In this document: in pieces, positions 6,676-60,655 of the stretch
Layout: each line of letters starts with the position of its first letter
Position numbering within the stretch: position 1 is the first letter of the stretch
Assembly (NCBI GenBank): GCA_050010755.1
Contig: JBEKKK010000001.1
Location: 768,001 to 832,000, forward strand
From: Candidatus Bathyarchaeia archaeon
Lineage (GTDB): Archaea > Thermoproteota > Bathyarchaeia > Bathyarchaeales > Bathycorpusculaceae
DNA: 64,000 nucleotides
Direction: 5' to 3'
Translations under genes and position numbers: made by a program
The notes under the pieces: generated by a model
Databases searched by the model: none
What the model saw: only the letters and a program-made list of their open reading frames with translations
What the model was told of the DNA's origin: nothing

Positions 6676-6698
6676 ATAACTCAGTCCCTCATTAGAGC

Positions 6699-7658: not shown

Positions 7659-7675
7659 GGTTCGTTGCGACGCTT

Positions 7676-8893: not shown

Positions 8894-9507
8894 GCCGTGG
8901 CCCCCGAGTTTCTGTAGGTCTCCAGTATTTCTTTTATCCAGTTCTCAGATTTGGGCGATATGACTCTGATCTTGCCGGGCGGGGCTTTGTATATCCTGAT
9001 TATCTCTTCTTTCATCCATTCGGACTTGACGACTAGTTTTTCGGCTTCGGTTGTTCCAAGCCATTCGATGCTCTTTATCGACATGTTGAACGGTGAATTG
9101 GCGCCGTGAGAACGGTGTTCCTCCACGCTCTCGACGGAATAAATGAACGGGATGGCAAGTGCCCTTTTCAAAGTGACAGCGGCGGGTATGAAGTGCCAGT
9201 CATGTACGTCGATGAGATCAACTTGTTTGTCCGATGCGTAGTAGATGTTTGCGGCGACTCTTTCGACTTCTTGGTTCAAGGTGAGAACCCATGTTAGGAC
9301 GCCTATGTGAGTGTGAACAGGGTTAGTCACTCTGAAAGTCTTTACGCCCTCAGGCTCCTCATGCTCTCCGGTTAGAAAGTCATGATAGGTGACTACCCAT
9401 GCTTTCTCGTTGTTCTTAACAAGCTCAGTGGCTAATCTTTTCACGTAGTCTGCGAGTTCCCCGACGATTCTGGGCGGGTATTCCCAAGAAAATATCACAA
9501 TGTGCAT
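8890..9507 (-). CDS. GT4 N-terminal-domain-only protein (half GT-B), copy 1
   Basis: 'WEYPPRIVG' and 'DVHDW' present, donor-binding C-domain absent; ATGA overlap with the downstream GT4. Confidence 0.85.
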   Translation of the reverse strand: MHIVIFSWEYPPRIVGELADYVKRLATELVKNNEKAWVVTYHDFLTGEHEEPEGVKTFRVTNPVHTHIGVLTWVLTLNQEVERVAANIYYASDKQVDLIDVHDWHFIPAAVTLKRALAIPFIYSVESVEEHRSHGANSPFNMSIKSIEWLGTTEAEKLVVKSEWMKEEIIRIYKAPPGKIRVISPKSENWIKEILETYRNSGATA

Positions 9508-9517
9508 TGAGGTTTCA

Positions 9518-9769
9518 CTACGTGAAGATTGCGCAGATTTTTATTATCCCGCTCCCTGTTAGGTAGTACTTCTTCTTTCCTTCGTTATCCGTGAAGCTTT
9601 CGGCAAAGCCTTGGCGTTTGTAATCATCAAGAATTCTTTCCAACTCTTGCAGGTCAACCTGCATGACCTGCGACAGTTCTTCGCTTCGTCTGGCCAGCTC
9701 GGGAGATGTTGCACAGAGATTATGTAAAGTTTGCAAAATCTTCTCTGGAAGTGGAAGCGCTTCGCTCAT
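9518..9769 (-). CDS. Small winged-HTH protein, copy 1
   Basis: 83 aa; helix-turn-helix followed by the wing 'GKKKYYLTGSGI'; paralog of 38094-38354. Confidence 0.75.
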   Translation of the reverse strand: MSEALPLPEKILQTLHNLCATSPELARRSEELSQVMQVDLQELERILDDYKRQGFAESFTDNEGKKKYYLTGSGIIKICAIFT

Positions 9770-9841
9770 ACAATCACCTTAATTGTGCCCTGAAGCTATT
9801 GTTGGCGAGTTTTTCTTATAAAGGCATGTGCGCATCCGAAG

Positions 9842-11391
9842 TTAGAAGTATTTGGTGGCGGAGCGCATCTCGGCCGTGAGTTTCGTTGACTCCTTGTCAA
9901 CGTGTTTGATTATTGCTTGTCTGAGAGGTTCGCCCATAAGTTTTGAGAGTCTTTCTTTCTTCAGATTTTGCTCCAATGCTGGGTCATGAAGCGACTTCAG
10001 AGCCCACTGTTCGAAGTCTCCTCGGTTGTTGTGGAATTCCAGGGATTTCATGCTCACGTTGCGAATGGCCTTTGTGAAGCCTTTCAGGCTCCAGGCCGTT
10101 GTTCCTGTGAAGTGCTTTTCTCCTACGCCCGTATAGAATCGGAAGGGTTCGTCCGCGACTACGGCGGCGAGTCTGACTCTGTTTTCGAAGTCCAGTATTG
10201 CTGCTTGCGCGGTTACGAAGGCGTCCATAGGTGTGCTGTAGGGGCTGAAGTACGAGTGGACCTCGCCAGGCGAGCCTCCGGCGGTGAACATGTAATAGAG
10301 GTGGTCGCTTGTCTGGAAATATCGCCACGTTCTCAGGAATTCTTTGTCCTCAGTTTCCCTGACGAAGGGTTCCAACCGTCTCAATGTCGTGTAGAAAGCC
10401 CACTGCAGGGTGTTTCCGAGCCAGCAGCTCGCGTCTCTCTCTCCAGATCCGCCCATGAGACTGTTCCTCCGAGCTCTGGGACGTCGATTTCTCCTGCGGG
10501 GACGTGTTTCTGTGCTGCTTCGGAGGGCGTGGTCATTTGGAGGTTCCACCACTTCAGTATTTCAGGCGGCAAGTGTCTCAGGAAGTCGTGAATGCCGGTT
10601 TCGGGCCAGTGGTGTTCTCCGAAGGTCTCGTAGTCTGGGAAGATGTTGATGCAGTCGCCAGGCGTTGCTGCTAGCCAACTCGCGTATTTGTCCGCGGTCA
10701 ATGGCCACTCGTTCCACCATCTCGCCGAGAACCTGAAGCCTATGTCGTCTGTGAGCTTGTAGTTTCGCAGGAGTATCTTGATTTTTTTCAGGCCTTTGGG
10801 CAGGTAGAGGTGGTTCGGCGATTTTCCATGGAGAATTCTTTCCACGCCTTCGGTGAAGATTCCTTTGTAACCTAGCTTTTCAACTGTTCTCGCGACGGCG
10901 TTGTTGTAGAGCAGCTCCGTGTTCTCGAAGACTGTTGACTTGTAGTCCAGCAGGTCTCTCATAACCTGCTGATGCATCTTCACCTGATCGATGAATTCTT
11001 CTCTCTCGGGGTAGAGGCTTGCCAGGGAGTGATAGTAGGTTTGGCTCAGGAACTCCACTTGGCCAGAATCTGCGAGTTGTTTGAACGTTTCCAGAAGGTC
11101 CTTGTTGAACATTTCGCACTGTTCCAGAAAGACGCCTGAGAGGCTGAACGAGAATTTGGGCTTTTTCTTTTCTCCTTTGTACCTGTCGATGAGTTCGAGC
11201 AGTATGCTGTTCGAGGGAAAGTAGCATTTTCTGCTTGTCCTTTCAAAAACTTCTCTGTTCATCGCGCTGTCAAAGTAGTAGTCGAAGTAGTCTTTTTTGG
11301 CAACGCGTTCGAACATTTTGCTTTCCCAAAAGAAGCTTCGTTTTATTCTGTGTGGTTGATGGACCTCAAAAACAAGAACAACGTCTGTCAA
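9842..11391 (-). pseudogene. GH57 alpha-amylase/amylopullulanase with C-terminal DUF5752-like domain, frameshifted at 10434-10443
   Basis: Two frames (10381..11391 and 9842..10552) together align end to end with the intact paralog 39937..41469. Motifs 'HQP', 'NTEL', 'DYETFGEHHW'. The shift lies in a (GA)5 tract. Confidence 0.88.
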
Positions 11392-11478
11392 ACCTTTGTC
11401 CTCTGTGCCTTTATCGGTTAATCGTTTATTTCTTGTTTGCTGTCAGGGGAGCAGGCGTGGTTAGACAGGGGCGGCTGG

Positions 11479-12258
11479 TCATATTTCGAATTTGTCTATT
11501 ATCTTTCTCTCTCTTTCTCCTGTTATTTCGGCGATGACGTGGATGTACGGTTGAAGTCCCGAGTTTTCGATTCTGGGTTTGAGGAGTTCGTCTATTTGGA
11601 AGACTCCAGCGGAGTTTGACATTGTTATTCTTATCGTTACGGGTTTCGGTTCGCTTTCTTGGATGCTAACCTTTTCGATAGACAATGCGGAGACGGAGTG
11701 AATGTCAACTTTTCCAGCTTGGAACGGTATGCGAGCTCTTCCCTCTTCCATGTCCAAGGCGTCGGCAATGCGCACGATGCCCGCTTCAATTGTTAGGGGT
11801 TTGACTGGGTTCTCGTGTGCGACTATGCAGTGCAACACTTCGGAAAGGATGATGGTGCGTTCCTCCTCAGAGTAGACGGCTTGCAAGTATTTTTCGATGA
11901 GTTGCGAGGCCAGAAGCGCGCTATAATACGCGTGTCCCTCCCTTAGAACTGTCATACCGAGATCGTGGAAGATTGAGCCTAACACGACGACCACTTCGGC
12001 GTCGTCGTTTTTCATGTTGTAGTTTTTGACGATGCTGGGTACGACTTTTTTGTCAATCAGTATTCTGAGGATTTTGAGGGCAACGTTGGAGACGATTTTC
12101 ACGTGGGTGGGCCCGTGATCCGTGTAGCCCATGCGGTCGATGGCCATCACGTTTGCGCATCTCCATAGAGTCTGCAGCTTGGTGTCTTTCTTGACTTCCT
12201 CGATTACATGCTTCAGCTTCTGATTGTCACGAAACGGGATGTTGAAAACGTACGACAT
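11479..12258 (-). CDS. HD-domain metal-dependent phosphohydrolase
   Basis: 'YTDHGPTH', 'FHDLG', 'AH', 'ADALD'. Confidence 0.88.
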   Translation of the reverse strand: MSYVFNIPFRDNQKLKHVIEEVKKDTKLQTLWRCANVMAIDRMGYTDHGPTHVKIVSNVALKILRILIDKKVVPSIVKNYNMKNDDAEVVVVLGSIFHDLGMTVLREGHAYYSALLASQLIEKYLQAVYSEEERTIILSEVLHCIVAHENPVKPLTIEAGIVRIADALDMEEGRARIPFQAGKVDIHSVSALSIEKVSIQESEPKPVTIRITMSNSAGVFQIDELLKPRIENSGLQPYIHVIAEITGERERKIIDKFEI

Positions 12259-14218: not shown

Positions 14219-16003
14219 ATGTTGACTTCAGTAGAGCTTTCAGGAAGAGAACTCGGAATGATAAAGCTGATGGCTGACTTCTTCGCTGAAAAACCAGAGC
14301 TAGTAGCAAAAATCGAGAGCTACACAACGGCCCACTATGCACTGATGACGACATACTCGGAGAACTTCGGTGTCCCTGTAGAAGACGCTTGGAAGGTCTT
14401 CGAGGAGGTTGAGAGGAAGATCAACGAGGCAGAATACATACGCGTTGAGGCACCGTATCCATTGAAGAAGTGGTACAGTCTGTCCAAAGAAGAAATAAAC
14501 ATGATGCGCGTCTTGTGCGACTACTTCTCAGCAAACCCTAAGATGAGCCCCGAGAGCGCCTTTGCCGCGACCAGAACAGAATCAATCATAGAGGCCTATA
14601 AATGGTTCTTCGGAACCACAGAGGGCAACGGCGAATATGCTAGAGAGAGCTACCGAAATCTTGTTGAGAAAACGCAAACGGCACTGTCGGTCAAGCTGGA
14701 AACACTGGCCTCGGTTGTAGCAACGCCAAACCCTTACGAAGCCGTCCTCAAGCTCCTGCAAATCGCCGGAGAGAAGTTGAAGCTAGACCCAGGAGTGCAT
14801 GAAGTCCTAAAGCGCCCCATGCGAACCATCATCGTTAATGTTCCAACCACGATGGACGACGGAAGCATAAGAGTCTTCACTGGCTATCGTGTCCAATACA
14901 ACGATGTCTTAGGTCCGACAAAAGGCGGTACAAGATATCACCCTGACCTGACGTTGGACGAGGTCATCGCGCTGGCCGCATGGATGACGCTGAAAACCGC
15001 TCTAACAGGGCTTCCTCTTGGGGGCGGCAAAGGTGGAATACGCTGCAACCCGAAAGAAATGTCCCCCGGGGAACTGGAAAGATTAACCCGAGGCTACACA
15101 CGGGCATTGGCAAGATTCATCGGACCACGCTCAGACGTACCCGCACCAGATGTTTACACAGACTCTCAAACAATGGCATGGATAATGGACGAGTATAGCC
15201 AGATAGTGGGATACAACGCCTTTGGAGTCGTGACGGGAAAGCCAGTTGACGTAGGAGGTTCACTTGGAAGAAACGAGGCAACATCTCGAGGCTTGATGTA
15301 CACCATAATCGAGGCAGCGAAGCACCTAAGCATAGAGCTTCAAGGGGCAACAGTTGCGGTTCAAGGATTCGGGAACGTGGGCTTTCACTCAGCCATGCTG
15401 CTCCATGAACTCGGTTGCAAGATAGTTGCAGTCTCAGACTCCAGAGGTGCGATACTTGATCCTGATGGGCTGAACCCAGCAAAAGTCCTGGAACACAAGA
15501 ACAAAACAGGCTCCGTTACAGGCTACAAGAATTGCAAAGCGCTCTCGAACAAAGAATTGCTAGAGTTGGAATGTGACATCCTCGTCCCATCAGCCATGGA
15601 AAACCAGATAACCACGGCAAACGCAGGCAAAATCAAGGCGAAAATCGTGGCTGAAGGCGCAAACGGACCAACCACGCCAGACGCGGACGAAACACTGTAC
15701 AGAAACGGAGTGTTCGTTATCCCTGATGTTTTGGCCAACTCGGGCGGCGTAATAGTCAGCTACTTTGAACAAGTGCAGAACCAAATGAACTACTATTGGA
15801 CCGAGGAGGAAGTGCGGAGCAAACTGAAGAGCGCGATAGTCAATGCATTCAAAGATGTTTTCGCAGTGTCCGAACAGTACAAGGTGAACATGCGAATAGC
15901 AGCCTACATGAACGCTGTAAAGAGACTTGCCGATGCAATGTCATTCCGCAACAGGAAAACCTTCGTTCCAGTCGCCGAGATAAATAACGTCACAGTCAAA
16001 TGA
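14219..16003 (+). CDS. gdhA: Glu/Leu/Phe/Val (glutamate) dehydrogenase with a ~170-aa N-terminal extension
   Basis: 'GPTKGG', 'GGGKGG', 'DVPAPD', 'QGFGNVG', 'EGANGP'. Core starts near 14729 (NPYE). GGAGG at 14204-14208 favours ATG 14219. Confidence 0.9.
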   Translation: MLTSVELSGRELGMIKLMADFFAEKPELVAKIESYTTAHYALMTTYSENFGVPVEDAWKVFEEVERKINEAEYIRVEAPYPLKKWYSLSKEEINMMRVLCDYFSANPKMSPESAFAATRTESIIEAYKWFFGTTEGNGEYARESYRNLVEKTQTALSVKLETLASVVATPNPYEAVLKLLQIAGEKLKLDPGVHEVLKRPMRTIIVNVPTTMDDGSIRVFTGYRVQYNDVLGPTKGGTRYHPDLTLDEVIALAAWMTLKTALTGLPLGGGKGGIRCNPKEMSPGELERLTRGYTRALARFIGPRSDVPAPDVYTDSQTMAWIMDEYSQIVGYNAFGVVTGKPVDVGGSLGRNEATSRGLMYTIIEAAKHLSIELQGATVAVQGFGNVGFHSAMLLHELGCKIVAVSDSRGAILDPDGLNPAKVLEHKNKTGSVTGYKNCKALSNKELLELECDILVPSAMENQITTANAGKIKAKIVAEGANGPTTPDADETLYRNGVFVIPDVLANSGGVIVSYFEQVQNQMNYYWTEEEVRSKLKSAIVNAFKDVFAVSEQYKVNMRIAAYMNAVKRLADAMSFRNRKTFVPVAEINNVTVK

Positions 16004-16099: not shown

Positions 16100-18031
16100 A
16101 TGTCGATTCATCTCCACACCACGATAACAAGAAAGACAAACGAAATGCTCGAAGAACTGGCAAAGACGTACGGCACCAAAAGCCACGTTCTTGAACAAGC
16201 CATAGAGACACTGCTAAGAGTTGAAAAAGTCGGCTCCTGCGACGATTGTGCAGTGAAGACAAAGATGAAAGAGCAGACAAATCTAAGAGAAGCGCTGGAC
16301 CTCATGTCTATTGACAAGCACACCATTGACAGTCTTTTGGAAGTAGCCATCGGCAACAAGACGATGAAAGACTTCGTCGCTGGACAGAAAGCAGAAGCAA
16401 AGAACACCGTCGAAATCCTGAAAGGCTCTGTTGCATGGCGAAAGCCCTCAAGCTTCAAAGAATTCATGATTATTCTGGAAGAGATAAAGAATCTCACCAG
16501 ACTCATCGACATCGCATCATTCAATGAACTAGACAACACTATAATCTTGAGAACAAGAGTTTTCAAGCAACTACCAGAGATCGCCGCCTTCCAGATAGCA
16601 ACTGTCCTTGAAGGCTTGCAAATTCCATTCGACATGCGGGTCATGGGAGAAGATATCGTGATCAAAATGACCAGAGAGGACCTTTACCTTATGAAGAAGA
16701 AGGACTTCAGAGAGTCCCTGAGCGAACAAATCGAAAAGCGGCTGCTCAACTCCATTCCGGGGCTTTTCAGAAACACGCTTATGCTGGTCGGGCCTGCTTT
16801 CATGAACTGGGCTGAAAAACACCTTGAAGAACCAATATCCGACTTCGGCTCTTTCCTTGAAGACGTCAGAGTTGCCACAGACTTGGGAGAACTCCCGAAA
16901 GAACCAAAAGAATTCGTGAAGAGTCTGCTGTCTGCCTTCATCAACATGAATTGGTTCAAGCAAGCAAAGATTCTGCAAGAGACCGACAACACCATGGAGG
17001 TCTCGTTTCAATCCACCACCACATCGGTGACGAAACTCTCCGTCGTGATGCTCTCCGTTCTCCTCGCAACCCGAGGCTGGAAATTGGTCAATTTTTCAGC
17101 AGAACAAACCACGGCCAACATCTCAATACAGTACGTGGGTTCTGGAGACTCTAGCCTGATGGACCAGATAGTCGAAGTCAGCCTGTATCAGACAATCGGC
17201 AAGCAGTTCCTAGACGCCATCCCAGTCCCGCGCGAGCTCTTGAACTCGTTTGCTTCAAAAGTGTACGACAGCAACAAGGAGAAATTCAACGAGATTTACC
17301 AGACGATGGGTGTTCGCGTAGCAAATGCTATACGGATGATGGCAAGAGACGACCCGGAAAAAATGAGAAAACTGGCGCAAACCTACGTCTCCAAGAACGC
17401 AGCATTCGCTCAGCCTGAAGCAGAAATCCGGTTTGTCGACAGCGAGCATTTCACGATAATTTTCAAGAAGATCGACCTGCTCGCAATTAACAGTCAGCGC
17501 GCGCTCGTCGAGTCCATGTTCAAGGAGCTCGGTTACGACATCTCCACAACGGTCTTCCAAAATCTTCTAAGCTTCAAGCTTAAGCAACTGGAAAAACCGG
17601 TTCTTGAATCCGTACCTCGCAAGAAAATGATGAAGGCCTTGATAGGTGAAATGTCGGCAAGCTGTGCTGATGAAGCTTTCGAAAATGGTAAAGGAACCAT
17701 TGATGAAACTTTTCCAGAGGACTATCCGTGGACGATTAGAGAAGTTGGGGATAGGATAATGGAGATGTACAGGGAACTCGACGTTGAGGTCGAAGTTGAA
17801 TACTTTGAGGGAGGCTTCACACTCAAGTACAAAACATGCCCCTACTACACGCTCGTCAAGTCAGGCCAGAAAACATGGCTCTGCAGTCTGCGAAAGAAAA
17901 CCCTAGACTACGTCATCTCCAGAGTCTCGCACGGAAAGAAAGCTAAAATAAAAATCATCAAGTCGCTGCTGAAGAACGAGCATCCATGCGAATACGCCGT
18001 GTTCCTAACAGGATTCTTGGAAGACAGCTAG
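16100..18031 (+). CDS. Putative regulator: N-terminal ribbon-helix-helix + CxxC + tandem V4R/TRAPP-like domains
   Basis: RHH pattern 'IHLHTTI-RKTNEMLEELAKTYG-TKSHVLEQAI'; 'CDDC'; C-terminal 'TLKYKTCPY...WLC...HPCEY' as in Cys-containing V4R/MetOD1-like domains. Confidence 0.6.
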   Translation: MSIHLHTTITRKTNEMLEELAKTYGTKSHVLEQAIETLLRVEKVGSCDDCAVKTKMKEQTNLREALDLMSIDKHTIDSLLEVAIGNKTMKDFVAGQKAEAKNTVEILKGSVAWRKPSSFKEFMIILEEIKNLTRLIDIASFNELDNTIILRTRVFKQLPEIAAFQIATVLEGLQIPFDMRVMGEDIVIKMTREDLYLMKKKDFRESLSEQIEKRLLNSIPGLFRNTLMLVGPAFMNWAEKHLEEPISDFGSFLEDVRVATDLGELPKEPKEFVKSLLSAFINMNWFKQAKILQETDNTMEVSFQSTTTSVTKLSVVMLSVLLATRGWKLVNFSAEQTTANISIQYVGSGDSSLMDQIVEVSLYQTIGKQFLDAIPVPRELLNSFASKVYDSNKEKFNEIYQTMGVRVANAIRMMARDDPEKMRKLAQTYVSKNAAFAQPEAEIRFVDSEHFTIIFKKIDLLAINSQRALVESMFKELGYDISTTVFQNLLSFKLKQLEKPVLESVPRKKMMKALIGEMSASCADEAFENGKGTIDETFPEDYPWTIREVGDRIMEMYRELDVEVEVEYFEGGFTLKYKTCPYYTLVKSGQKTWLCSLRKKTLDYVISRVSHGKKAKIKIIKSLLKNEHPCEYAVFLTGFLEDS

Positions 18032-18106
18032 GACGCGCACGTCGCCTAGACGCCCGCTAAGCTGTTCTGGCCGCGGCTTTTTCCAGTGCGGCGTGATAAT
18101 TGCGTT

Positions 18107-19591
18107 CTAGGAGTTGCTGTTGTGTGGGAGTAGTATGGCTCCTGTTCCGGGTGGGGCGGCTTGTTGGCTTGCGAGGCAGGCTAGGGCTAGGGCGAAGAGT
18201 TGATCGTCGTGTCGGCCGGGTGGGTGCCAGAATTTGAGGTGGATTCTTTCTCGTGCTGTTTTCGGTTGCAGGTACTCGTATTGTTGCTCGTTCATCTGGG
18301 TTACTAGTTGTCGGTCATCGGCGGGGATTTTGAGCAGGTTTTTTTCCATCAGGATTTTGAGGTGGTTGAGCATGTTTTCTTTTTCGATGTCGGTGAAGAA
18401 GACTCCGTTGACGTGTCCGACTTGGATGGCTTGGAGTTCGTCGACTACTGCGTCCCCTATGCCTGTTTTGTCTACGTAGAGGCTTTCGAAGTTGAAGATT
18501 TGGTGGGCTCTGGTCGCGTAGGCTACGACGCTGGGGTAGGGCGTGTCGAGGGGCAGCTGGCGTTTGTGAACGAGTCTAACTTCGCCTTTTTCGTTTTTTT
18601 GCACGATGACTAGGACGCTGTAGTCGACTTGTTTGCCGAGGTCCAAGCCGGCGTAGTGGGGTCCCTTGAGTTTTTGCGGGTTTGCTTTTTCGATGTCTTC
18701 GATGTAGACGACGGGCGATTTTGGGTTGCCGAGTTCTGGGTCTAAGCACTGGGCGATGAGGTCTAGAGGAAAGAACGTGTGGAGGGCTTCTGTCCAGAGG
18801 GCTTCTACTTCGCGTTTCCATTCTTCCTGTGTCATGACGTCGTGCCATTCGGCGAGTTGTTGGGGGCTTACGAGGGGGCTTGAGTGGCTTGGGTAGTGGT
18901 GGACCGAGTAGTGTGTCTTGTCGAGGAAGGTTTTGTGGAAGACGTGGTTGAAGGCCATGGGTGTGCCGCTCATGACTAGGCCGGCGTTGGGTTTGGTGAG
19001 CATCATCATTATTTCGCTGGTGATCATTTCGCTGGGAACGATGCTGGCTTCGTCTATGAACACCCAGTCTGGATGGTAGCCTCTGAGCTTGTCTGGGGAG
19101 CATGGGAGGGCGACGAGTCTTCCGCCAAGGGGCGGTCTGAGTTTGATGATGGTGCGGGTTGTTCCTGGACGCTGAATCATCTCCTTCATGAGCGGGTTGG
19201 CCATGACGGTGGAGTAGCAGTAGTCGAACATTATCATGCTCTGACGCTGAGTGCTGCTTACGATTAGACACTCTACCTTGGGCTTCGTGAACAGCAGCCA
19301 CAGGTTCTTCCTGCTTAAAACTAGGCTTTTGCCCCAGCCTCTTCCGCAAGCGGCAACGGTTCGCGGGCTTGAGTCTCTGAGCAGTTTCTGATGGTCTGGA
19401 GCTTGAACGAGCCACTTGTCTCCGCACATGAGCACGGCGAAGAAGACAGGATCATCGACGAGCCTGCGCGCCACTTGGGCATAGGAGAGGAGCTGTCTTA
19501 ACGCCTTCGGCTTTTGCCTCAGCCCTTCAGAAACCGAAGCCGCAAACTCTAGATCCGTGGTTACCTTTTCCGCGAAAGCCTTCTCTTCCAA
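18107..19591 (-). CDS. Terminase large subunit-like protein (ATPase + RNase H-like nuclease)
   Basis: Walker A 'CGRGWGKS', Walker B 'FIDEAS', 'SGTP', nuclease motifs 'GLDLGKQVD', 'DKTGIG', 'HDDQLFALALA'. Confidence 0.88.
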   Translation of the reverse strand: MEEKAFAEKVTTDLEFAASVSEGLRQKPKALRQLLSYAQVARRLVDDPVFFAVLMCGDKWLVQAPDHQKLLRDSSPRTVAACGRGWGKSLVLSRKNLWLLFTKPKVECLIVSSTQRQSMIMFDYCYSTVMANPLMKEMIQRPGTTRTIIKLRPPLGGRLVALPCSPDKLRGYHPDWVFIDEASIVPSEMITSEIMMMLTKPNAGLVMSGTPMAFNHVFHKTFLDKTHYSVHHYPSHSSPLVSPQQLAEWHDVMTQEEWKREVEALWTEALHTFFPLDLIAQCLDPELGNPKSPVVYIEDIEKANPQKLKGPHYAGLDLGKQVDYSVLVIVQKNEKGEVRLVHKRQLPLDTPYPSVVAYATRAHQIFNFESLYVDKTGIGDAVVDELQAIQVGHVNGVFFTDIEKENMLNHLKILMEKNLLKIPADDRQLVTQMNEQQYEYLQPKTARERIHLKFWHPPGRHDDQLFALALACLASQQAAPPGTGAILLPHNSNS

Positions 19592-19866
19592 CGTCCGTAA
19601 TCCACCCTGACTCGTCTTGCGATTCTCGACTCAACGCTTTTGATGAAGTCGCCCAAACTTGTCTCGTTCAACTCGGCGTCCACGCCTTTCTGGGCGAGAA
19701 GCTTGCTCAAAACGCTCGCGTGATAAGCATAGGAGTTTGCTGCGCTGATCTTGTCTTTCGCTGAAAGTTTAGGGTTCTTCATCATGTTCTTCAAGTCGAG
19801 AAGAATTTCCCTTTCATCCTCTATGAGACTTTCAAGATTCACCGAATTCCGATATGTGTGCTCCAA
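19561..19866 (-). CDS. Small helical protein overlapping the terminase start (candidate small terminase subunit)
   Basis: GGGGGAGG precedes TTG 19866; basic C-terminus; 31-nt overlap with the TerL-like gene. Confidence 0.55.
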   Translation of the reverse strand: MEHTYRNSVNLESLIEDEREILLDLKNMMKNPKLSAKDKISAANSYAYHASVLSKLLAQKGVDAELNETSLGDFIKSVESRIARRVRVDYGRWKRRLSRKR

Positions 19867-19888
19867 CGACCTCCCCCCTCGGTCAACG

Positions 19889-19916
19889 ATATGATCCAAA
19901 TATGATCCAAATATGA
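19889..19916. repeat. 11-bp tandem repeat ATATGATCCAA, 2.5 copies, upstream of the terminase pair
   Basis: ATATGATCCAA-ATATGATCCAA-ATATGA read directly. Confidence 0.75.
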
Positions 19917-20303
19917 AACACCAAACTCGCCGATGCACGCTCTCTAATCCACCTCAGACGAATTCTTCAGACGCACTTCGTGCACTCGGAAGCTAAGAAA
20001 CTATTACTTAGGCCCTGATTTTCAAACAAACACCATCAGTGAGAATTGCCCTTGCGTATTCGGCCAGCAAATCGCGCACCCTAAAATTCAATGTCTGCTG
20101 TTTGCAATGCATAAACTTACGTGACGCCACTCGAAGGCGGCAGGAGAATCAGCGAGCGTACCAATTAGTGTTCTTCGGGGCAGCTAAAAAGGATAGCGGC
20201 AAAACAACATCCCCAAGCAGCAGAGAGTGAAGTTAAAGTAAATCGAACCTCGGGAAACGCGCCTAATTCAAGTTGAACATGGCGGGGCGCACTTCTGTCT
20301 TTG

Positions 20304-22358
20304 TCACTTTATGGTGTAAGTGTAGTATTGTCCGTTGTTATCGTTGGTCACGTAACTTCCAGCGCTGGTGATTGCTTTGGTGACGTATTGAATCTGGGTT
20401 CCTGCCGATTGTCCTGGAATTGTTCCTTCCCAAGCTCCTGTGGCATTGTTGAATGTCATGTAGTCGAACGTCCACGCAGTACCGTTTATCTCCTTTACCG
20501 AGTAGCCGATATACACGAATTGTGGGGGTTCCTCTCCATTATTAACGGTTATGATCTGTGAGACCGTTACGTTCTGGTTCTCCTGCACGTCGTCTGCAGG
20601 CGGGTTTTGAGTGCATCGACCCATGGTCGGAGGTTGGACATAGACGAAGACGGGTTGCAGCGTATAGTTTGCGTTTAGAGTTATTATGATGAAGTTTTGC
20701 GATGTTGCCTGTTGACCGTTCAGTAGCCAGTGGCTGAAGATGTATCCGCTGTAAACGTCAGGCTTAGCGGTTACGTTTACCTGGGCGTTCTCGAGGTGGG
20801 TGTAGGTTCTGGGCGGAGGACTTGTGGTTCCGTTATCTGCCGGAAGGATGGTGAGAGCATAGGTTTCGTTGAGGCCGTAGGGGTTCATGAGCGGGTACAT
20901 GTCGACGTTGGAGTCGTCTGTTGTCCGGTAGGGCGTGTCGCCGATTCCGTCGCTGCCTGTGACGTTTTGACTAATACCGCTATAGTTGTCGCTTCCGGTG
21001 TAGCCGCTCCAGAAGTTTCCGCCTGAAGGATATCCGTTGTCAAGGGTGTTCGGAAGAAAATAGCCAAAGTACTGGAATTGGACTTGGTTGAGGTCGAAGT
21101 TGTTGTGAAAAATTGTTTCGTTAGTTGAGCCGTAGAGGAGTATCCCAGCCCAGTTTTGGAGCATGCTGTTTCCCACTATGTCGTTGAAATCTGAGTACCA
21201 GTCGAGTTCGATTGCTGCTCCGGAGTTAAGGGCGTTGCTGAAAAGGTAGTTGTCAAGTATCTTGTTGTTTGAAGCGTACCAGAAGTAGATGCCGCAGTTG
21301 CCGTTTGATGAAATGTTATTGTCGGAGATCGTGTTGCCTGTTGAGTATTCAAGAGCCTCGACACCGTTCGTGATGTTCAGGATCAGGTTGTTGTTTATGC
21401 TGCAACCAGTTGAGTTTTGAAGGTGAATGCCCGCTTCGAAGTCTCTGATGTCTACGTTCGTCACCGTGACGTTTTTTCTATCTGTCAAGTCTATTCCGGT
21501 TCCATTTCCAACCCCTTGAATTGTGTGGCCTGCTCCATCAATCACCGTGTTGTCCCTTTGTACGATGAGCGAAGCGTTGATGTCGTTGACCAGAAAATAC
21601 GTAGCGTTGTCCTGCGTGACGATTCCGCCGCTGCCCTGGATAGAGCCGTCAGGTCTGATGTAAACGAGCGGGTACTGTTTCGGATTCGCCGTTGGCTGAG
21701 CAGTGAAGTTAACAAGGGCCAAAACAATTATGAGCAGGGGAAGGAGAATGAGCAAAGTTGCACGTTTGACTCCCAGGAGCACACATGCAGACGTTGCCAA
21801 GAGCGCAACTCCCACAATGGATAGTTCGATTGTGAGGAATAAAGAAGAGTCGGGTTTTGTGACATATTCGCCTATTGATACTGGAAACTGAAAATCGCCA
21901 AACCCCGGCGTCTGGTCGTAGAACGGCATGACAAGATACCACGTTCCAGGCTTCGCGTCTACCCCAAGATTTCCCAAGGAAATCCCGTTTGGAGAGGATG
22001 TGAAAAAAGACTCGTCGCCGAGGCCAGTCTCGTCTTCGCTGAACAGTGTTCCTTTCTCGGTGACGTTGAAGCGCACTGTAACGTAGCCTTCGAGGAAATG
22101 CAGGACTGAGTGTTCACCGTTCAAGCCATTTGAGAGCTTGTCGAAGCTGGAGAACTCGTCTTGGTGGAACGTGACGTTTACGGATAGTAGTCTGTCCGGC
22201 TGAACAGTGCCGTTGATTATGTGGGCGGTCTGGTTCACGAGGAACTCTTGATCTTGGTAAGTCGGAAACCCATTTGTCTGATAATACTGAACCGGCAGGT
22301 TGAGTATCAGCAGGACGCCTACAATAAGGAGTAGCCATGCAAATTGCTTAACATTCAT
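20304..22358 (-). CDS. Membrane/surface protein with NosD/CASH parallel beta-helix and C-terminal Ig-like domains
   Basis: Signal/TM segments; 'VYIRPDGSI', 'DNTVIDGAGHTI'; N-rich GIxL repeats; 'DNGYPSGGNFWS...DGIGDTPY...DMYPLM'. Confidence 0.85.
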   Translation of the reverse strand: MNVKQFAWLLLIVGVLLILNLPVQYYQTNGFPTYQDQEFLVNQTAHIINGTVQPDRLLSVNVTFHQDEFSSFDKLSNGLNGEHSVLHFLEGYVTVRFNVTEKGTLFSEDETGLGDESFFTSSPNGISLGNLGVDAKPGTWYLVMPFYDQTPGFGDFQFPVSIGEYVTKPDSSLFLTIELSIVGVALLATSACVLLGVKRATLLILLPLLIIVLALVNFTAQPTANPKQYPLVYIRPDGSIQGSGGIVTQDNATYFLVNDINASLIVQRDNTVIDGAGHTIQGVGNGTGIDLTDRKNVTVTNVDIRDFEAGIHLQNSTGCSINNNLILNITNGVEALEYSTGNTISDNNISSNGNCGIYFWYASNNKILDNYLFSNALNSGAAIELDWYSDFNDIVGNSMLQNWAGILLYGSTNETIFHNNFDLNQVQFQYFGYFLPNTLDNGYPSGGNFWSGYTGSDNYSGISQNVTGSDGIGDTPYRTTDDSNVDMYPLMNPYGLNETYALTILPADNGTTSPPPRTYTHLENAQVNVTAKPDVYSGYIFSHWLLNGQQATSQNFIIITLNANYTLQPVFVYVQPPTMGRCTQNPPADDVQENQNVTVSQIITVNNGEEPPQFVYIGYSVKEINGTAWTFDYMTFNNATGAWEGTIPGQSAGTQIQYVTKAITSAGSYVTNDNNGQYYTYTIK

Positions 22359-22454
22359 GTTTGCATCGCTATGGACAATTATGGGGTTGACGAGGGGAAA
22401 AACCTTACTGTGAAGAGCATCAGTCTGGGTGAAAAGACCGCGTGAGAGTGTTAA

Positions 22455-24427
22455 GGGGTAAAGTTTACCCCCAACCCAAAACGTTTTATTATGCTATTGT
22501 GTCTGATTGCACTAGACAATAGAATTATTAGTTGCAGTTGCGCGCGCGCTCGACACTGCATAAGGTTAGGGATGAAAGTCTGAATGAAATTGCTTATGAA
22601 TATAGGACACATAGTTATCATACTGTTTTTAATCGTCTTGTTTCTTATCAGGAGTTAATCAGTATTCTTGCATGGTTGTGTCTTTTCACAAAAGATACTA
22701 AGCTGATTACTTGGTATCTTCTCCAGAACATTAAAGGAACGTACACTCTTAGACTTGGATTCAAGGGAAAGAAGAAGCCTCCGAAAATCGTTTACCGCTT
22801 CGGCAATCAGGATAAGCAAATTGCAAAATACCTTTCTAATCGTTATTTCGTCCTCAATTTTCTAGCGCGCGCGAAAGAAAAGCAAAATAAGAAAGAGCGT
22901 GCGCTCATCATAAAATAATGGAGAGATTCGATGAAATTATTGTCTCTAGCATTATTAGTATTATTATGTACGTTCTGTGTTGTGATAGTAATTCCAGTAG
23001 TTTCTATTCCTAAAGTTCATGCTGATAGCAATTCAGCAGATGTAGTAACAATATCTCTTCTGTTAGAAACCAATAGTGATTTTGACCAATTAGCTGCTTG
23101 GTTACCTACTACTGGATATAAACAATTCACATTCGTTATAGATGATTTTCCTCCTACATACGCCTATATTCTCCATAATTCCACTAGGGTAAATATTCTC
23201 AAAACTTATGGAGAATTAATTCCAAGATTTGATTATATGCAGCAATACACTCCAGCACAAAGAGAAGCTCAAGTGAATCAAATTACTTCTGATTGGATAA
23301 CTTATGTTGGATATGCTCCAAAAGGATGTTTTGATTTTATTCCAGATACGTTTACAACAAATTATGCAAAATCTTTAGGATATATGTACATTGGTGGATA
23401 TTGTCAAGACCAATACGCTGTAGATGCAATAACCGAAATTGGAGGATGGCAAGAACCATATTATGCAAGTTCGTATAATATATTAGTTCCAGACAATTCT
23501 ACTACACAATGTACTGGAATGGTAGTTCTTCCTCACGCTACAGCAGATTGGATAGATAGTTATACTGTTTGGCAAGGATTGCAATTACATCCAATGAATA
23601 TAATGACCGAATTTAAGAATAATACTGCTGATGCTAGGACGTACTTTTATGCATTAATTAATGACACTTTGTTAGATGTTTCTCCTGTAAGTTTAGCCAA
23701 CATTCAATTTGAATGGGATTGGTGTGTTAATTATGGATTAACTAGCACAGTATCTACATGGATAAAAGGATTAGTTACTGGTACTTCTGCTGTTAGTGCT
23801 CATTATGAATTAACGGATTACACAGCATTCGTAATTTGGTTCAAGGCAACATATTCAACTAATCCTACTTATGAAGTGAAATTTACTTCTCCATATGATT
23901 CATCTGATACTATAGAATGGTATTGGAGTTCTCAATATCGTATTGCTAGAGTCAATGGAAAAGTGGTAGATTTCGTTGATTATAATATTCAAGCTCCAGA
24001 TAAGTTCTTAACAGAAAGTTTTGCCATAAACTGGACTAGACCAATGGATAATGACCCAGATAACTGCATAGATGATTCTCTTTTTGTAACTATTGCAGCA
24101 TTAGGTGGTGGGATGTTAAGATATCCAGCGATTAGTACACAAGAGATTCCGTACACTGGACTTTTGGCCGATTTTCCATCCACGCATTATAGACAAAGTA
24201 TCAATTCTATTAATGTTCCATTTATAGCTGCAGTAACGGCAGCGGCTGCAGCTATAATCGGAATGACTGCAGCGGTAGCTAAAGCCAAAAGCGCAAAAAG
24301 AACAAACAAGTGTAAAAAAAGTAATTTAATCTTTGAGCGCGCGCTAAAGTGGATTTATAAATAGATTACATAAAGCGGTGTAAAAAGTAAACTGGGTTGC
24401 GGTTGGGTTGGGGGTAAACTTTACCCC
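22455..24427. mobile_element. AT-rich cassette bounded by perfect 25-bp inverted repeats, no transposase or integrase inside
   Basis: GGGGTAAAGTTTACCCCCAACCCAA (22455-22479) and its exact reverse complement (24403-24427); the interior is visibly much more AT-rich than the flanks. Confidence 0.65.
22931..24364 (+). CDS. Secreted, membrane-anchored protein, possibly polysaccharide deacetylase/GH57-like barrel
   Basis: Signal peptide ('...KVHA-DS'), 'GYAPKG', 'GGWQEPYYAS', C-terminal TM helix with a basic tail. Confidence 0.6.
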   Translation: MKLLSLALLVLLCTFCVVIVIPVVSIPKVHADSNSADVVTISLLLETNSDFDQLAAWLPTTGYKQFTFVIDDFPPTYAYILHNSTRVNILKTYGELIPRFDYMQQYTPAQREAQVNQITSDWITYVGYAPKGCFDFIPDTFTTNYAKSLGYMYIGGYCQDQYAVDAITEIGGWQEPYYASSYNILVPDNSTTQCTGMVVLPHATADWIDSYTVWQGLQLHPMNIMTEFKNNTADARTYFYALINDTLLDVSPVSLANIQFEWDWCVNYGLTSTVSTWIKGLVTGTSAVSAHYELTDYTAFVIWFKATYSTNPTYEVKFTSPYDSSDTIEWYWSSQYRIARVNGKVVDFVDYNIQAPDKFLTESFAINWTRPMDNDPDNCIDDSLFVTIAALGGGMLRYPAISTQEIPYTGLLADFPSTHYRQSINSINVPFIAAVTAAAAAIIGMTAAVAKAKSAKRTNKCKKSNLIFERALKWIYK

Positions 24428-24525
24428 CACACAGGAATGACGACGCGACGACGATAGAACATTTTGAATTTGTTCTAGCGCGCGCTAGAAATTATTTGCA
24501 GTTTAAGAGAAACTTAAGACGTTTT

Positions 24526-24882
24526 CTATGAGGTATGCTGCGCGCGCTTATCGTAATTGTGATTTGTACATTTCCGTTTTTGTTGAGAGAAATAAGAAGA
24601 ATTGGAGACGTTTCGTTTAACAGTTTTTAGCACGTGCGCTGTCTGTGTTGGTGGACTCGCCAAGCATAGGGCTAGGTCTTCGAGTGACAAAACAGTCCCT
24701 ACACCTAATAGCTTAAGAGAAAACGCGGAATAAGGGTAAACAACATATCGGGGAATTTGAGGGCCTAAAACGCTTAGAAACCCTGTATAATGATGATAAG
24801 TGGCTAATATTCCGCCTGCCAAGAGTAGCACGCCTGAAATTATTCCTGTGACAACAATTAGCCAAAAATCGCTTCTTTTCAT
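24526..24882 (-). CDS. Small membrane protein
   Basis: MKRSDFWLIVVTGIISGVLLLAGG...; two hydrophobic segments; 3' end uncertain. Confidence 0.45.
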   Translation of the reverse strand: MKRSDFWLIVVTGIISGVLLLAGGILATYHHYTGFLSVLGPQIPRYVVYPYSAFSLKLLGVGTVLSLEDLALCLASPPTQTAHVLKTVKRNVSNSSYFSQQKRKCTNHNYDKRAQHTS

Positions 24883-25184
24883 ATTATTCCCCGTCTTTTC
24901 CCTAATAAATGATATAGCCTCTTCAACTATTAGTCTTTCTGTTCTGCGCGCGCTTTCTCCATCCATACACTGTGATTTCACTTATTAGGAGAATGATAGC
25001 AAACATTCCAATGCAACCTGTTGCTAATGCTCCAAGTCCAGAACCGATATAACCATACTCTATTAGCGCGGGCTCTTTTCAAAAGCAAATTTCATAGAAA
25101 ATCCCTCAAGTTTCTTTTGAAGTGCAAATAATTCTTAGTCTCATTGTTCTGTTTTCCAAACTTGAAAACAGTCAACGCTCTTTC

Positions 25185-26414
25185 TTAGGATGTTCGTGTT
25201 GCGGCTTTTTCGAGTGCAGCGATTCCTGGAAGCTTTTTGCCCATAAGAAACTCTATTAGTGCTCCGCCGGCTGTGCTGATGTATGAGATTTTCTTGGTTA
25301 GCCCGAACTCTTCGATGGCGGATATCGTGTGTCCTCCTCCAGCTAGGGAGAATGCTTTGGAGTTCGCTATTTCTTCAAGAATTCTTTTTGTTCCGATACT
25401 GAATTCCTTGTTTTCATAGACTCCCATGGGCCCGCTGATGACGATTGACTTTGCCTTCCTTATAATATTCGTGTACTCCTCAACTGTCCTCGTTCCAATG
25501 TCATAGGTCGGGTATTCCGTGGGTAACTCGCTGACGGATATCTCCTTTCTTTTTCCCTTCACTTCAACCGCCATGTCGAGTGGAGTCTTGATTTTGTCGG
25601 GATATTTTTGGATGAGCATCTTTATTCCGGGTAGGAACCCCATGAGTTCTTTCTTTACCAGGTAATCCATGTTCGGTTTGCCGAGGTCTACGCCTTTTGC
25701 TGCAAGGAATACTTGGCCCACGACTCCTCCTGTGAGCACGTAGTTCGCTATTGCCTTGTCCAACACGTACTTCGATATTTCAAGGGAGTCATCGGCCTTT
25801 GCACCGCCGATGATGAATATGCACGGTTTCTCAGGGTTTTCCACGACTTTGCCGAGAGATTTCAGTTCCCTCTCCATTATGCGTCCAGCAACGCTCGGTA
25901 AAACGGCTGTGAAGCCTACCATCGACACGTGCGCCCGGTGCGCGGCTGCAAAGGCATCGTTCACGAAGAGATCCGCCACCGGAGCAAGGTTTTTGACAAG
26001 CTCCGTTTTCGCATGCTCTTCCGGAGTTCCGTCCTTTGTCTCGCCGTCAAACGTTCTCACGTTTTCCAATACGAGAATTTCGCCGCTCTTCAAGCCCTTG
26101 ATAGCGTTCTTGGCCTTCTCTCCGTAGAGATCGTCAACGTACTTGACTGGCTTCTTCAGGATTTTGCTCAGGATTTCAGCGTGCTGCTTCAACGGGATAA
26201 AGTCTGGATCGCCTTTGCGTCCCTGATGCGTCAGGATAACGACTTTTGCACCCTTCTCAGAGAGTTCCTTAATTGTTGTTTCACCGCTTGCACGGATTCT
26301 CGCGTCTTCCAAGATTTTATGGGTTTTCGGGTCGATGGCTGAATTGAAGTCAACCCTTACCAGCACAACTTTGTCCTTAACTTTCACATCATCCAACGTA
26401 AGGAACTTCGGCAT
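25185..26414 (-). CDS. pgk: Phosphoglycerate kinase (archaeal type)
   Basis: 'VRVDFNS', 'LENVR', 'NDAFAAAHR', 'GGAK', 'STAGGA'. Confidence 0.96.
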   Translation of the reverse strand: MPKFLTLDDVKVKDKVVLVRVDFNSAIDPKTHKILEDARIRASGETTIKELSEKGAKVVILTHQGRKGDPDFIPLKQHAEILSKILKKPVKYVDDLYGEKAKNAIKGLKSGEILVLENVRTFDGETKDGTPEEHAKTELVKNLAPVADLFVNDAFAAAHRAHVSMVGFTAVLPSVAGRIMERELKSLGKVVENPEKPCIFIIGGAKADDSLEISKYVLDKAIANYVLTGGVVGQVFLAAKGVDLGKPNMDYLVKKELMGFLPGIKMLIQKYPDKIKTPLDMAVEVKGKRKEISVSELPTEYPTYDIGTRTVEEYTNIIRKAKSIVISGPMGVYENKEFSIGTKRILEEIANSKAFSLAGGGHTISAIEEFGLTKKISYISTAGGALIEFLMGKKLPGIAALEKAATRTS

Positions 26415-26482
26415 ATTTTCCAACCCCTGACAAATAACAAAAAAACGGCGGGTGTTTTGGATTTAATCGCCTAGCGTTTAGT

Positions 26483-27538
<1,056 letters not shown>

Positions 27539-27559
27539 CTAATTAAGTTTCCGATCCCA

Positions 27560-28534
27560 GGTTCTGGTAACTTCATTGGCGATGCTTCTCCCTGTTACAA
27601 AACAGGTGACAGAAACGCCCTTGATTTGGGTTCATGTTAAAAATCGGGTGATAATCTGTTGAGTGGATGTACTCGTTAAGGAAAGTCAGGATTTATAAAT
27701 GGAAGGCTTGATACAATATTTCATGAATAGAACTGTTACACTCATAATTACTTCTGCTCTGGCATTATCTTTGGTTTTCTCTGCCTTAACTATCTGGTCT
27801 GAGACTGATGTTCTTGTCGAAACGCTTTATGGCCCTACCCGTACTTTACTTATGCCTCCAAACTCTAATGCAACTATTTTGCTGGCAGGGCTTTCAATCG
27901 ACAGATCATATGTGAGCTTTGGCAACTTGTTTAATGCCTCGGAAACATTCAGCATACCAGCAAACTACAACATGCAATTCACCTTATCACTGTCAATATG
28001 GGTTAACAAGTCATATTTTGCACTACTTGAAACTCTGGGATACCCCCCTGAGAACACGACAATTGATGATAGAGTTTCTGATTCAAGCAACTGGAACAAT
28101 CCTTTAGTTACTGGGGAGGGAACTGGATTTCAAGTTAACATGGAACCAAATGTCATATATCAATTGACTATCGGAAACTATGAAGCCTTTGGGGAAAACG
28201 TGACTACTCGTCCCACCCCCTTTACTATTCAAAATACAAGTAACAGCTTACAGATAACGATAGGTGATCCATTATCAATAATCGTCACCTATACAAGAGA
28301 ACCCAACATTAACTTATCTGGCGGTCTCATCATTCTGGATGCAATACTTGTGACGATGACGATATTCTTCGCACGTAACAAGAATCGATCGAACGATCTG
28401 CAAAAGAGCCTTCAAGAAGAAAGCAGGTAACTTTGTTTTCAAATTCGTTTCTTGCTAGCATGGACAGCCAATAGGGCTCGTTTGTCACCCGATTTTTAAC
28501 AGCGAAAACCATCGCCTATGAAGTCACCAGAACC
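27560..28534. mobile_element. Non-autonomous transposable cassette (IS-type ends, 8-bp TSD) carrying one cargo gene
   Basis: Imperfect TIRs starting GGTTCTGG (44 of 52 nt match by hand alignment); exact direct repeat CGATCCCA at 27552-27559 and 28535-28542. Confidence 0.85.
27699..28430 (+). CDS. Membrane-anchored hypothetical protein (cargo of the cassette)
   Basis: N- and C-terminal TM helices around an N/T/S-rich extracellular part; no DDE motif; AT-rich. Confidence 0.7.
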   Translation: MEGLIQYFMNRTVTLIITSALALSLVFSALTIWSETDVLVETLYGPTRTLLMPPNSNATILLAGLSIDRSYVSFGNLFNASETFSIPANYNMQFTLSLSIWVNKSYFALLETLGYPPENTTIDDRVSDSSNWNNPLVTGEGTGFQVNMEPNVIYQLTIGNYEAFGENVTTRPTPFTIQNTSNSLQITIGDPLSIIVTYTREPNINLSGGLIILDAILVTMTIFFARNKNRSNDLQKSLQEESR

Positions 28535-59000: not shown

Positions 59001-59111
59001 GCGCGCGCGCCTCATTTTTGGTCGGACGTATGTTCTAAAAACACCGGTAAGACACGCTAAAAACCCGTATCCGCAAAAATACCTAACGCGCGCGCTAAAC
59101 CCCAAGCTGTT

Positions 59112-60573: not shown

Positions 60574-60655
60574 AACTCTTATCTTACATTTACACGGTTG
60601 TCTGTGCACGCTTTTCTTTCAGCTCAGGTTCTCTTTTGGAAAAGAGAAAGTGAGG

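Follow-up and report, generated by a model that had tools for sequence, protein, structure and literature searches.

A palindrome-bounded gene cassette in a Bathyarchaeia genome: probably a decayed relative of Cas1-encoding, PolB-less transposon-like elements

The window analysed here is a stretch of 64,000 nucleotides (nt), G000:C1:768001-832000, from a Bathyarchaeia metagenome-assembled genome (MAG), G000, which comprises 2,186,690 bases in 8 contigs. Within it, a gene cassette at 22455-24427 (coordinates without a genome prefix are window positions) is enclosed by perfect inverted repeats. It probably belongs, as a decayed and non-autonomous member, to a family of transposon-like (casposon-like) elements in Bathyarchaeia that encode Cas1 but no PolB. 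The original prediction had proposed either a non-autonomous casposon-like cassette or a unit flipped or integrated by a recombinase. The features of the cassette and its right edge, including open reading frames (ORFs) with lengths in amino acids (aa) and terminal inverted repeats (TIRs), are as follows.

22455..22471, no strand: left near-palindrome of 17 bp, GGGGTAAA-G-TTTACCCC, read as insertion target (core); a sister core lies on both sides of related elements.
22472..22479, plus strand: left element tip CAACCCAA, a C-rich TIR; the same first 8 nt open the arms of a 6.1-kb element in G000 and a 2.8-kb element in G004.
22532..22918, plus strand: ORF of 128 aa, judged from homology at 22548-22863, alignment and fold to be a 5'-truncated remnant of a conserved 229-aa, putatively primase-polymerase-like gene.
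22540..22549, no strand: (GC)5 run on the left border of a 316-bp homology block (pattern match and DNA comparison).
22860..22872, plus strand: first copy of the 13-nt direct repeat TTCTAGCGCGCGC, the left breakpoint of a 1613-bp segment missing in metagenome run X5.
22931..24364, plus strand: cargo gene whose 477-aa product has a signal-like segment at the N-terminus and a hydrophobic anchor at the C-terminus; no family assigned by Pfam; GC content 0.32-0.35.
24403..24410, minus strand: right element tip TTGGGTTG, a G-rich TIR (inverted-repeat search).
24411..24427, no strand: right near-palindrome GGGGTAAA-C-TTTACCCC, whose centre base is inverted compared with that of the left one.
24473..24485, plus strand: second copy of TTCTAGCGCGCGC, the right breakpoint of the 1613-bp polymorphism.

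The predicted 25-bp inverted repeats with a terminal palindrome are real. The arm GGGGTAAAGTTTACCCCCAACCCAA (22455-22479) was 100% complementary over its 25 nt to the arm at 24403-24427, with 1923 nt between them. The 17-nt palindrome pattern GGGGTAAASTTTACCCC had two matches in the window versus 0.01 expected from shuffles, and an exact search of the whole G000 genome confined it to the two cassette-end sites. The genome check of the 17-mer gave a divided answer, as the exact word was unique to the cassette ends but a sister motif, GGGGTAAAGTTTTATCCC, was dispersed. Because the 17-mer followed by its 8-nt arm occurred at only two places in the genome, the two copies are related by one event. 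No direct repeat was found outside the two palindromes at the cassette ends, in agreement with the predicted lack of a visible target-site duplication (TSD), but the palindrome itself is duplicated on either side of related elements. Each 25-nt repeat reads best as a junction between a landing site, the 17-bp AT-centred near-palindrome, and a short C-rich or G-rich element tip. The TIRs of the cassette are accordingly counted either as CAACCCAA / TTGGGTTG or, with the palindrome included, as 25 nt. The prediction of a sharply bounded AT-rich segment held on one side only. The GC content dropped near 22350 from about 0.50 to 0.32-0.40, so that the left boundary coincided with the repeat, but it remained at 0.38-0.43 up to about 25200, which placed the right boundary about 0.8 kb beyond the right repeat.

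Two ORFs (128 and 477 aa) were found in the cassette instead of the single gene originally described. As predicted, no recombinase family was detected by Pfam in the enclosed ORFs; none of the invertase or recombinase families was detected in the 7 ORFs of 18107-28430 either, and Cas1 was absent from the cassette according to the ORF list and Pfam. The 477-aa cargo gave nothing above noise in Pfam, PHROGs, NCBIfam and PADLOC. An Atlas model reached a template modelling (TM) score of 0.68 to DUF3863/DUF4832-type proteins, which serves as a lead only. Paralogues of the cargo with 42-48% identity were located elsewhere in G000 and G004, and none of the three paralogue loci (L012-L014) had GGGGTAAA, TTTACCCC, CAACCCAA or TTGGGTTG within 1.5 kb. 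No tRNA or known RNA was found at the cassette ends; the sole tRNA of the window was at 60654-60730, with no other Rfam family detected.

The shorter ORF links the cassette to a Cas1 element. The DNA at 22548-22863 was 84% identical to G000:C1:656011-656326, which lies within that element, and 86% identical to G004:C1:292308-292623. Alignment indicated that the window copy retains only the C-terminal two thirds of the putative primase-polymerase-like gene, the N-terminal approximately 100 residues with the VDWDE and GFIILQSS motifs being missing. This fragment of a Cas1-element gene inside the cassette favours the casposon-like option.

The Cas1 element in question, identified by a word search for the inner arm, is 6.1 kb long and is located at G000:C1:654128-660222, 130 kb from the cassette. 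Its left end consists of GGGGGTAAAGTTTTATCC followed by CAACCCAACCC and its right end of GGGGTTGGGTTG followed by GGGGTAAAGTTTTATCC, and the first 8 nt of the window tip also open its inner arm. These shared ends support the casposon-like option at the level of the family. The element encodes a Cas1 protein (PF01867, E 1.1e-49), the only one counted in G000, together with a 307-aa P-loop protein, two proteins of 131 and 137 aa resembling helix-turn-helix proteins, the 229-aa protein and membrane or secreted proteins. No Cas2 was found in G000, and a k-mer scan of this genome revealed no CRISPR array. No PolB family was listed by Pfam for the 11 ORFs of the region (L015), 9 of which are inside the element, and the three PolB genes of G000 were located more than 600 kb from Cas1 or on another contig. 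The window cassette lacks Cas1 and its 6.1-kb relative carries a solo Cas1, so the cassette is at most a non-autonomous derivative. It could be moved only in trans, by the single Cas1 130 kb away, and it may be immobile.

A Cas1-less 2.8-kb element in G004 (L004) had the same end layout, and its arm opened with the same 8 nt. In both the 6.1-kb and the 2.8-kb element, the AT-centred core was not a perfect palindrome; the cores were direct, and the C-rich and G-rich arms were inverted. Direct cores combined with inverted arms form the pattern of a duplicated target (or a shared att core) beside TIRs. The original prediction held that some casposon TIRs begin with GGGG...CCCC palindromes. This premise was not encountered in the casposon literature examined; here the palindrome behaves as the target and not as the tip of the element itself.

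The 229-aa protein of the element had 91 homologues, all named 'hypothetical protein' and none with a Pfam family, and the protein itself had no Pfam match. Its gene adjoined Cas1 in seven loci (L015, L057, L069, L070, L071, L075 and L076). In the family alignment, H134 was invariant and the VDWDE, GFIILQSS and SYHTVFN motifs were conserved. Neither the 229-aa nor the 307-aa protein had a significant match to PDB sequences in profile and sequence searches. An AlphaFold model of the 229-aa protein (predicted local distance difference test, pLDDT, 83; predicted TM score, pTM, 0.80) was aligned by VIA-align with Z values of 6.1-7.0 to 13 chains of primases, PrimPol or LigD/NHEJ (non-homologous end joining) polymerases among the top 20. 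The best Foldseek matches were PrimPol proteins of human and African swine fever virus (E 0.011-0.1; human PrimPol 0.011). These comparisons weakly suggest a primase-polymerase-like protein, a label that is hedged because the Z values were middling; the AEP / primase-polymerase superfamily is marked by a catalytic fold with DxD and sxH motifs, and in the 229-aa family VDWDE and SYH are conserved.

Relatives of the Cas1 protein were drawn from 20 loci, every one of which bears the title of a Bathyarchaeia or Bathyarchaeota MAG. The putative catalytic residues E160, H225 and D237 were invariant in 20 of 20 clade members (53-88% identity). Among the Cas1 models, only the generic TIGR00287 exceeded its cut-off (171 versus 71.7 bits), and no subtype model passed. 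The clade is large, with at least 120 clusters (formed at 90% identity) that are 62-100% identical to the query Cas1. In 140 ORFs located up to 6.5 kb from Cas1 in 11 loci, no PolB, Cas2 or Cas4 was listed (Pfam, E<=1e-5). Genes listed in this neighbourhood included restriction-modification, AbiV, AIPR and E1/E2-like genes, and a small putative primase-polymerase-like protein and a P-loop ATPase recurred in the elements instead of PolB. No recombinase other than Cas1 was detected in the related elements by Pfam.

The end architecture of the cassette also bounds Cas1 elements in these other MAGs, which again favours the casposon-like option. Direct repeats adjacent to TIRs were found in 5 of 15 Cas1 loci: L015 and the four listed here.

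L069: direct repeat of 21 nt flanking Cas1; inner arms inverted.
L076: direct repeat of 16 nt, GGATTAAATTTTAACC; inner arms CCAAACCCAAACCCAAAC.
L077: direct repeat of 13 nt, ATTAAATTTTTAT; inner arms matching at 25 of 25 positions.
L085: direct repeat of 15 nt, GACTAAATTTTAATC; inner arms inverted.

With the 2.8-kb element of G004 included, direct repeats of 13-21 bp were thus present in six related elements. The script applied to the Cas1 loci detected direct repeats only, and inverted pairs were taken from a separate inverted search. The TIRs of the relatives ranged from 13 to 141 nt; those beside direct repeats were perfect over 72 nt in L077 and 109 nt in L085, and L073 had inverted repeats of 40 and 28 nt. 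The core variants GGGGTAAAGTTTTATCC, GGATTAAATTTTAACC, GACTAAATTTTAATC and ATTAAATTTTTAT co-varied with Cas1 divergence. A degenerate-core scan of distant Cas1 loci with an overly strict filter identified sites in L077 and L085 only.

Two further Cas1 loci had long terminal structures. L086 is a 17.5-kb Cas1 contig with a perfect 141-nt inverted repeat (1-141 / 17366-17506) starting with AACCAACCA; the contig may represent an entire element that was assembled by itself, in free or linear form. In L076, a perfect 143-nt inverted repeat (4661-4803 / 15073-15215) encloses the inner Cas1 element (6321-11631), which suggests that the latter is nested inside a second element.

The occurrence of the core was examined by exact-word and Hamming scans of five genomes of the genus. 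The sister motif GGGGTAAAGTTTWAYCCC, with up to 2 mismatches on both strands, was found 15 times in G000, 31 in G004, 48 in G003, 27 in G002 and 6 in G001, versus 0-1 matches for a reversed control. In 53 distinct core sites, the 5' 16 nt were G-rich (mean 7.15 G, 1.17 C) and the 3' 16 nt C-rich (mean 5.75 C, 1.72 G). The arms were simple repeats (GGGTTT, GGGTT, GGTT, GT, GA, GGAA), and the two arms of one site were often mismatched, giving hybrid sites. A full site was found at G000:C2:3378, with the structure TTTGGGGTTTGGGG-core-CCAAACCCAACCCC. In G000, 19 of 20 core sites were outside ORFs of at least 120 aa. The arrays were located at C1:653-669, 790-792 and 943-954 kb, and in the islands at 653-669 and 943-954 kb the cores separated cassettes of one or two genes which, as judged from the translations, carry ATP-binding cassette (ABC) transporter, glyoxalase-like and old-yellow-enzyme-like genes. 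Among 52 pairs of neighbouring cores up to 7 kb apart, 36 were on the same strand (the genomes being related, the pairs are not independent), and such mostly co-oriented cores are predicted by successive duplication. A promoter or terminator function of the core was unsupported, with 20 cores facing gene starts and 24 facing gene ends at distances of 5-2732 nt. At L038 (G002:C4, ~161677), two inverted cores were located 11 nt apart, GGATAAAACTTTACC-ccaaccaacca-GGTAAAGTTTTATCC, an arrangement suggestive of a nearly empty element or of a scar left at a junction.

The state of the cassette in natural populations was followed in public data. Twelve runs contained the window stretch, all of them peat or wetland metagenomes present as contigs only, and four (X4, X5, X9 and X10) were compared. 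Contigs of run X4 (22407-23095 and 23622-24509) bridged both repeats as in the window. In run X5, which comes from another study and had a word depth of about 171, one contig joined 22859 to 24473 with 13 letters shared, skipping 1613 bp. A left-flank contig of the same run led via the core and CAACCCAAAAC into foreign DNA, and the contig entering the cassette came out of this foreign DNA in reverse complement, by way of GTTTGGGTTTGGGTTTG and the core. The simplest reading of this comparison of filled and empty sites, which rests on contig ends of 17 and 34 nt, is that X5 has a second TIR-bearing element at the left core, with a core on both sides; at this position, one core is present in the window and in X4. 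A 13-letter word from the end of the inserted element was not found in G000 or the loci retrieved for comparison. As to inversion or excision, no strand-changing or palindrome joints were listed in the contigs of the four runs, from which rare variants are dropped. A position fixed across relatives, which the original prediction regarded as evidence against a mobile unit, was not observed: cassette DNA occurred in none of the four congeners, but it was absent together with a larger region. Window positions 18041 and 25201 were only 164 bp apart in G004 and 325 bp apart in G002, so that 18042-25200 is a 7.1-kb strain-specific island containing the cassette.

A mechanism can be proposed for the casposon-like reading. 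The Cas1 integrase, as the presumed enzyme, would join both 3' ends of the element to staggered positions flanking a palindrome of the form GGGGTAAAGTTT(T)A(T)CCCC, represented by the sister core GGGGTAAAGTTTTATCCCC or the 17-mer of the window. Gap repair would then duplicate the palindrome, and the regenerated site could be used repeatedly to give stacked cassettes. The inner 8 nt (CAACCCAA / TTGGGTTG) would be the start of the simple-sequence TIR of the element. The window cassette would once have been mobilised as this unit.

Several observations weigh against this reading. The palindromes of the window match at 25 of 25 positions (with their tips) as an inverted repeat and at 16 of 17 as a direct repeat, the centre being G in one copy and C in the other, and a plain target duplication would therefore require a substitution at exactly that base. 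The cassette occurs once in G000, and no sign of movement as a unit was seen. The sole structural variant seen, the 1613-bp gap of X5 (22860-24472), takes out the cargo gene and the right repeat, and its breakpoints are the two copies of TTCTAGCGCGCGC with a GC run, not the palindromes; since this variant is bounded by another repeat, the inverted-repeat unit may be composite. In 10 of 15 Cas1 loci, some of them cut by contig ends, no direct repeat beside TIRs was found, and the 18-nt core pairs around Cas1 in L071 and L074 were inverted, not direct, in the inverted-repeat search. Neighbouring cores had opposite orientation in 16 of 52 pairs. No Cas1 was found in G002 (97% complete, 27 motif matches) or in G001 (77% complete, 6 motif matches). 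Compared with solved structures, the protein matched a CRISPR Cas1 (4n06, E 1.1e-19) more strongly than the casposase of M. mazei (6opm, E 3e-13). PolB, one of the defining features of casposons, was not listed among the 140 ORFs of 11 loci, where the putative primase-polymerase-like protein and the P-loop ATPase occur in its place. A composite origin of the cassette is possible, with a left module (core, tip and gene remnant) and a right module (cargo, tip and core) joined at a GC run, and it would explain both the inverted centre base and the GC-run breakpoints of the X5 variant.

Of the other explanations, the one that survives best, although it is rather unlikely, regards the palindromes as crossover sites of conservative site-specific recombination, integron-like or between attachment (att) sites, with Cas1 as a passenger in some cassettes. 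A circular cassette (G-arm/core/C-arm) would recombine with a chromosomal site and produce hybrid sites with one core per side. Hybrid and full sites, such as that at G000:C2:3378, do exist, and a near-palindromic core tolerating either orientation would fit the inverted centre base and the oppositely oriented pairs. The abundance of the motif in G002, where no Cas1 was found, and the ordinary metabolic and transport genes of the cassettes are also in keeping with it. However, no recombinase besides Cas1 was present in the elements, and G000 has its three PF00589 genes far from the cassette islands, at C1:1117 kb, C1:1349 kb and C2:60 kb. The arms adjacent to the core vary freely (GT, GA, GGTT, GGGTT, GGAA), unlike fixed recombinase-binding arms, and long perfect TIRs of 72-141 nt are a transposon trait.

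It is improbable that the palindrome is a host intergenic signal (a promoter, terminator or protein-binding site) which flanks an acquired gene by chance and at which Cas1 elements land, the cassette never having been mobile. The almost exclusive location of the G000 sites outside ORFs and the frequency of the motif in genomes without a detected Cas1 would suit such a signal, and the core TAAAGTTTTAT may resemble an archaeal B recognition element (BRE)/TATA element. Against this stand the restriction of the 17-mer with its 8-nt arm to two places, the lack of preference for gene starts over gene ends and the remnant of an element gene inside the cassette. An invertible, phase-variable segment, in which a recombinase would flip the DNA between the 25-nt repeats and switch expression of the secreted protein, is very improbable: inversion would preserve the perfect repeat including its centre base and the cargo is a surface-type protein, but there is no invertase or recombinase in or beside the cassette and no positive evidence of flipping, the cores of related elements are direct, not inverted, and the gene start at 22931, about 450 nt from the left repeat, lies with its upstream region inside the segment, so that flipping would not obviously uncouple the promoter.

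If the cassette belongs to a casposon-like family, the family differs from known systems in several respects. The CRISPR adaptation machinery has been proposed to descend from casposons. Casposon families 1-4 were reportedly distinguished by Krupovic et al. in 2014, and to our knowledge every family described so far combines Cas1 with PolB and targets the ends of tRNA or ef-2 genes. The Bathyarchaeia elements instead target a dispersed intergenic palindrome, not a tRNA or ef-2 3' end, their TIRs start with simple G-rich or C-rich repeats, and many cassettes lack Cas1. The likeness consists in a Cas1 without Cas2 or CRISPR array inside a TIR-bounded element with a direct repeat of 13-21 bp, a palindromic target, tandem stacking at a regenerated site and a cargo that includes defence genes. 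By the published definition, casposons are cas1-polB islands that possess TIRs and TSDs, and they fall into four families (PMC9939771, PMC6563490). The same sources describe TSDs of about 15 bp with a palindromic target (PMC9939771), tandem insertion (PMC6563490) and, as the target of the A. boonei casposase, the T-psi-C palindrome of tRNA-Pro (PMC9939771).

The cassette resembles a miniature inverted-repeat transposable element (MITE) in that it lacks a transposase, has ends like those of a relative in the same genome that does carry one and contains a truncated gene; it differs in its size of about 2 kb, its full cargo gene and its single copy. Rows of one-gene cassettes split by a repeated imperfect palindrome and mostly co-oriented are reminiscent of integrons. 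There is, however, no IntI-type recombinase beside the arrays, the Bathyarchaeia elements have long TIRs, and their site consists of 16-19 bp with simple-sequence arms and is not an attC hairpin, which measures 50-150 nt. A CRISPR array shares with them a Cas1-family enzyme, a short, partly palindromic repeat duplicated with each insertion and co-oriented repeats around the inserts. In contrast to such an array, the inserts here are of kilobase size, bear genes and have inverted tips of their own, and Cas2, leader and effector genes are lacking. No non-autonomous casposon was described in the literature searched, consisting mostly of titles and the starts of abstracts; in PMC6452270, the term 'non-autonomous' is used of IS605/TnpB. 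Casposons of Bathyarchaeia or without PolB were likewise not described in the titles and abstracts of the literature found, which excluded subscription journals and supplements, and PMC13343696 mentions neither Bathyarchae- nor Cas1.

The boundaries of the 7.1-kb island around the cassette are formed by two related segments.

18059..18093, minus strand: displaced copy of the pgk 3' end at the left island boundary, matching the corresponding gene end in G002 and G004 with 97-100% identity.
25185..25221, minus strand: present pgk 3' end at the right island boundary, the direct-repeat partner (ORF list and DNA comparison).

The island contains a gene resembling that of a terminase large subunit (18107-19591, minus strand; phrog_2, E 3.5e-33) and a NosD/beta-helix secreted protein, and no integrase was found in its 7.1 kb. 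To the right of the cassette, a 55-nt inverted repeat (24485-24539 / 25084-25138, 78% complementary) flanks an ORF for a 151-aa membrane protein (24526-24981, minus strand). Run X10 has copies of its arms or of the 151-aa ORF in other contexts, and further ones were found at G002:C5:105375-105471 and G000:C1:951219-951356. The sequence at 19830-19917 is also repeated, with stretches of 50-88 nt at 11 other places in G000 (85-95% identity), and corresponds neither to a tRNA nor to an Rfam family.

Alternating GC runs, GCGCGCGC, were another feature of the region, with 13 matches in the window versus 0.97 expected, at 1904, 17497, 22540-24953 (6 places) and 57622-59095 (4 places). The genome had 253 occurrences of GCGCGCGC and 109 of the other phase, CGCGCGCG, versus 2-39 for five other GC-only 8-mers. 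Such runs were outside long ORFs in 72.5% of cases, though long ORFs make up 82.6% of the genome. They were found at both edges of the 316-bp block, at the breakpoints of the 1613-bp segment of X5, at the points of divergence after purQ (G001, G002) and at a 161-bp G002/G004 indel, and may represent recombination hot spots of a second type. The densest cluster (1350-1370 kb, 21 sites per 20 kb) adjoins the region of a gene for a 441-aa tyrosine recombinase (G000:C1:1349415-1349957).

The data indicate that a family of Cas1-carrying elements without the usual polymerase, for which a short palindrome would be the landing site, is widespread in these peat archaea. A more far-reaching possibility, put forward tentatively, is that the family represents a fifth, PolB-less kind of casposon, in which a solo Cas1, a small primase-polymerase-like protein and an ATPase would insert kilobase cassettes into a palindrome of about 17 bp and duplicate it, building co-oriented arrays that would stand, as a living intermediate, between transposons and CRISPR arrays; one worn-out unit of such a system would be the window cassette. 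For annotation, the strain-specific cassette islands of peat archaea would find an explanation, and 'CRISPR-associated Cas1' labels there would be misleading. The picture would be that of an abundant Bathyarchaeia Cas1 clade in PolB-less elements which target a dispersed palindrome and leave rows of Cas1-less cassettes behind. If true, this would widen the range of what a Cas1 transposon can be and would offer a plausible natural model for the origin of repeat arrays.

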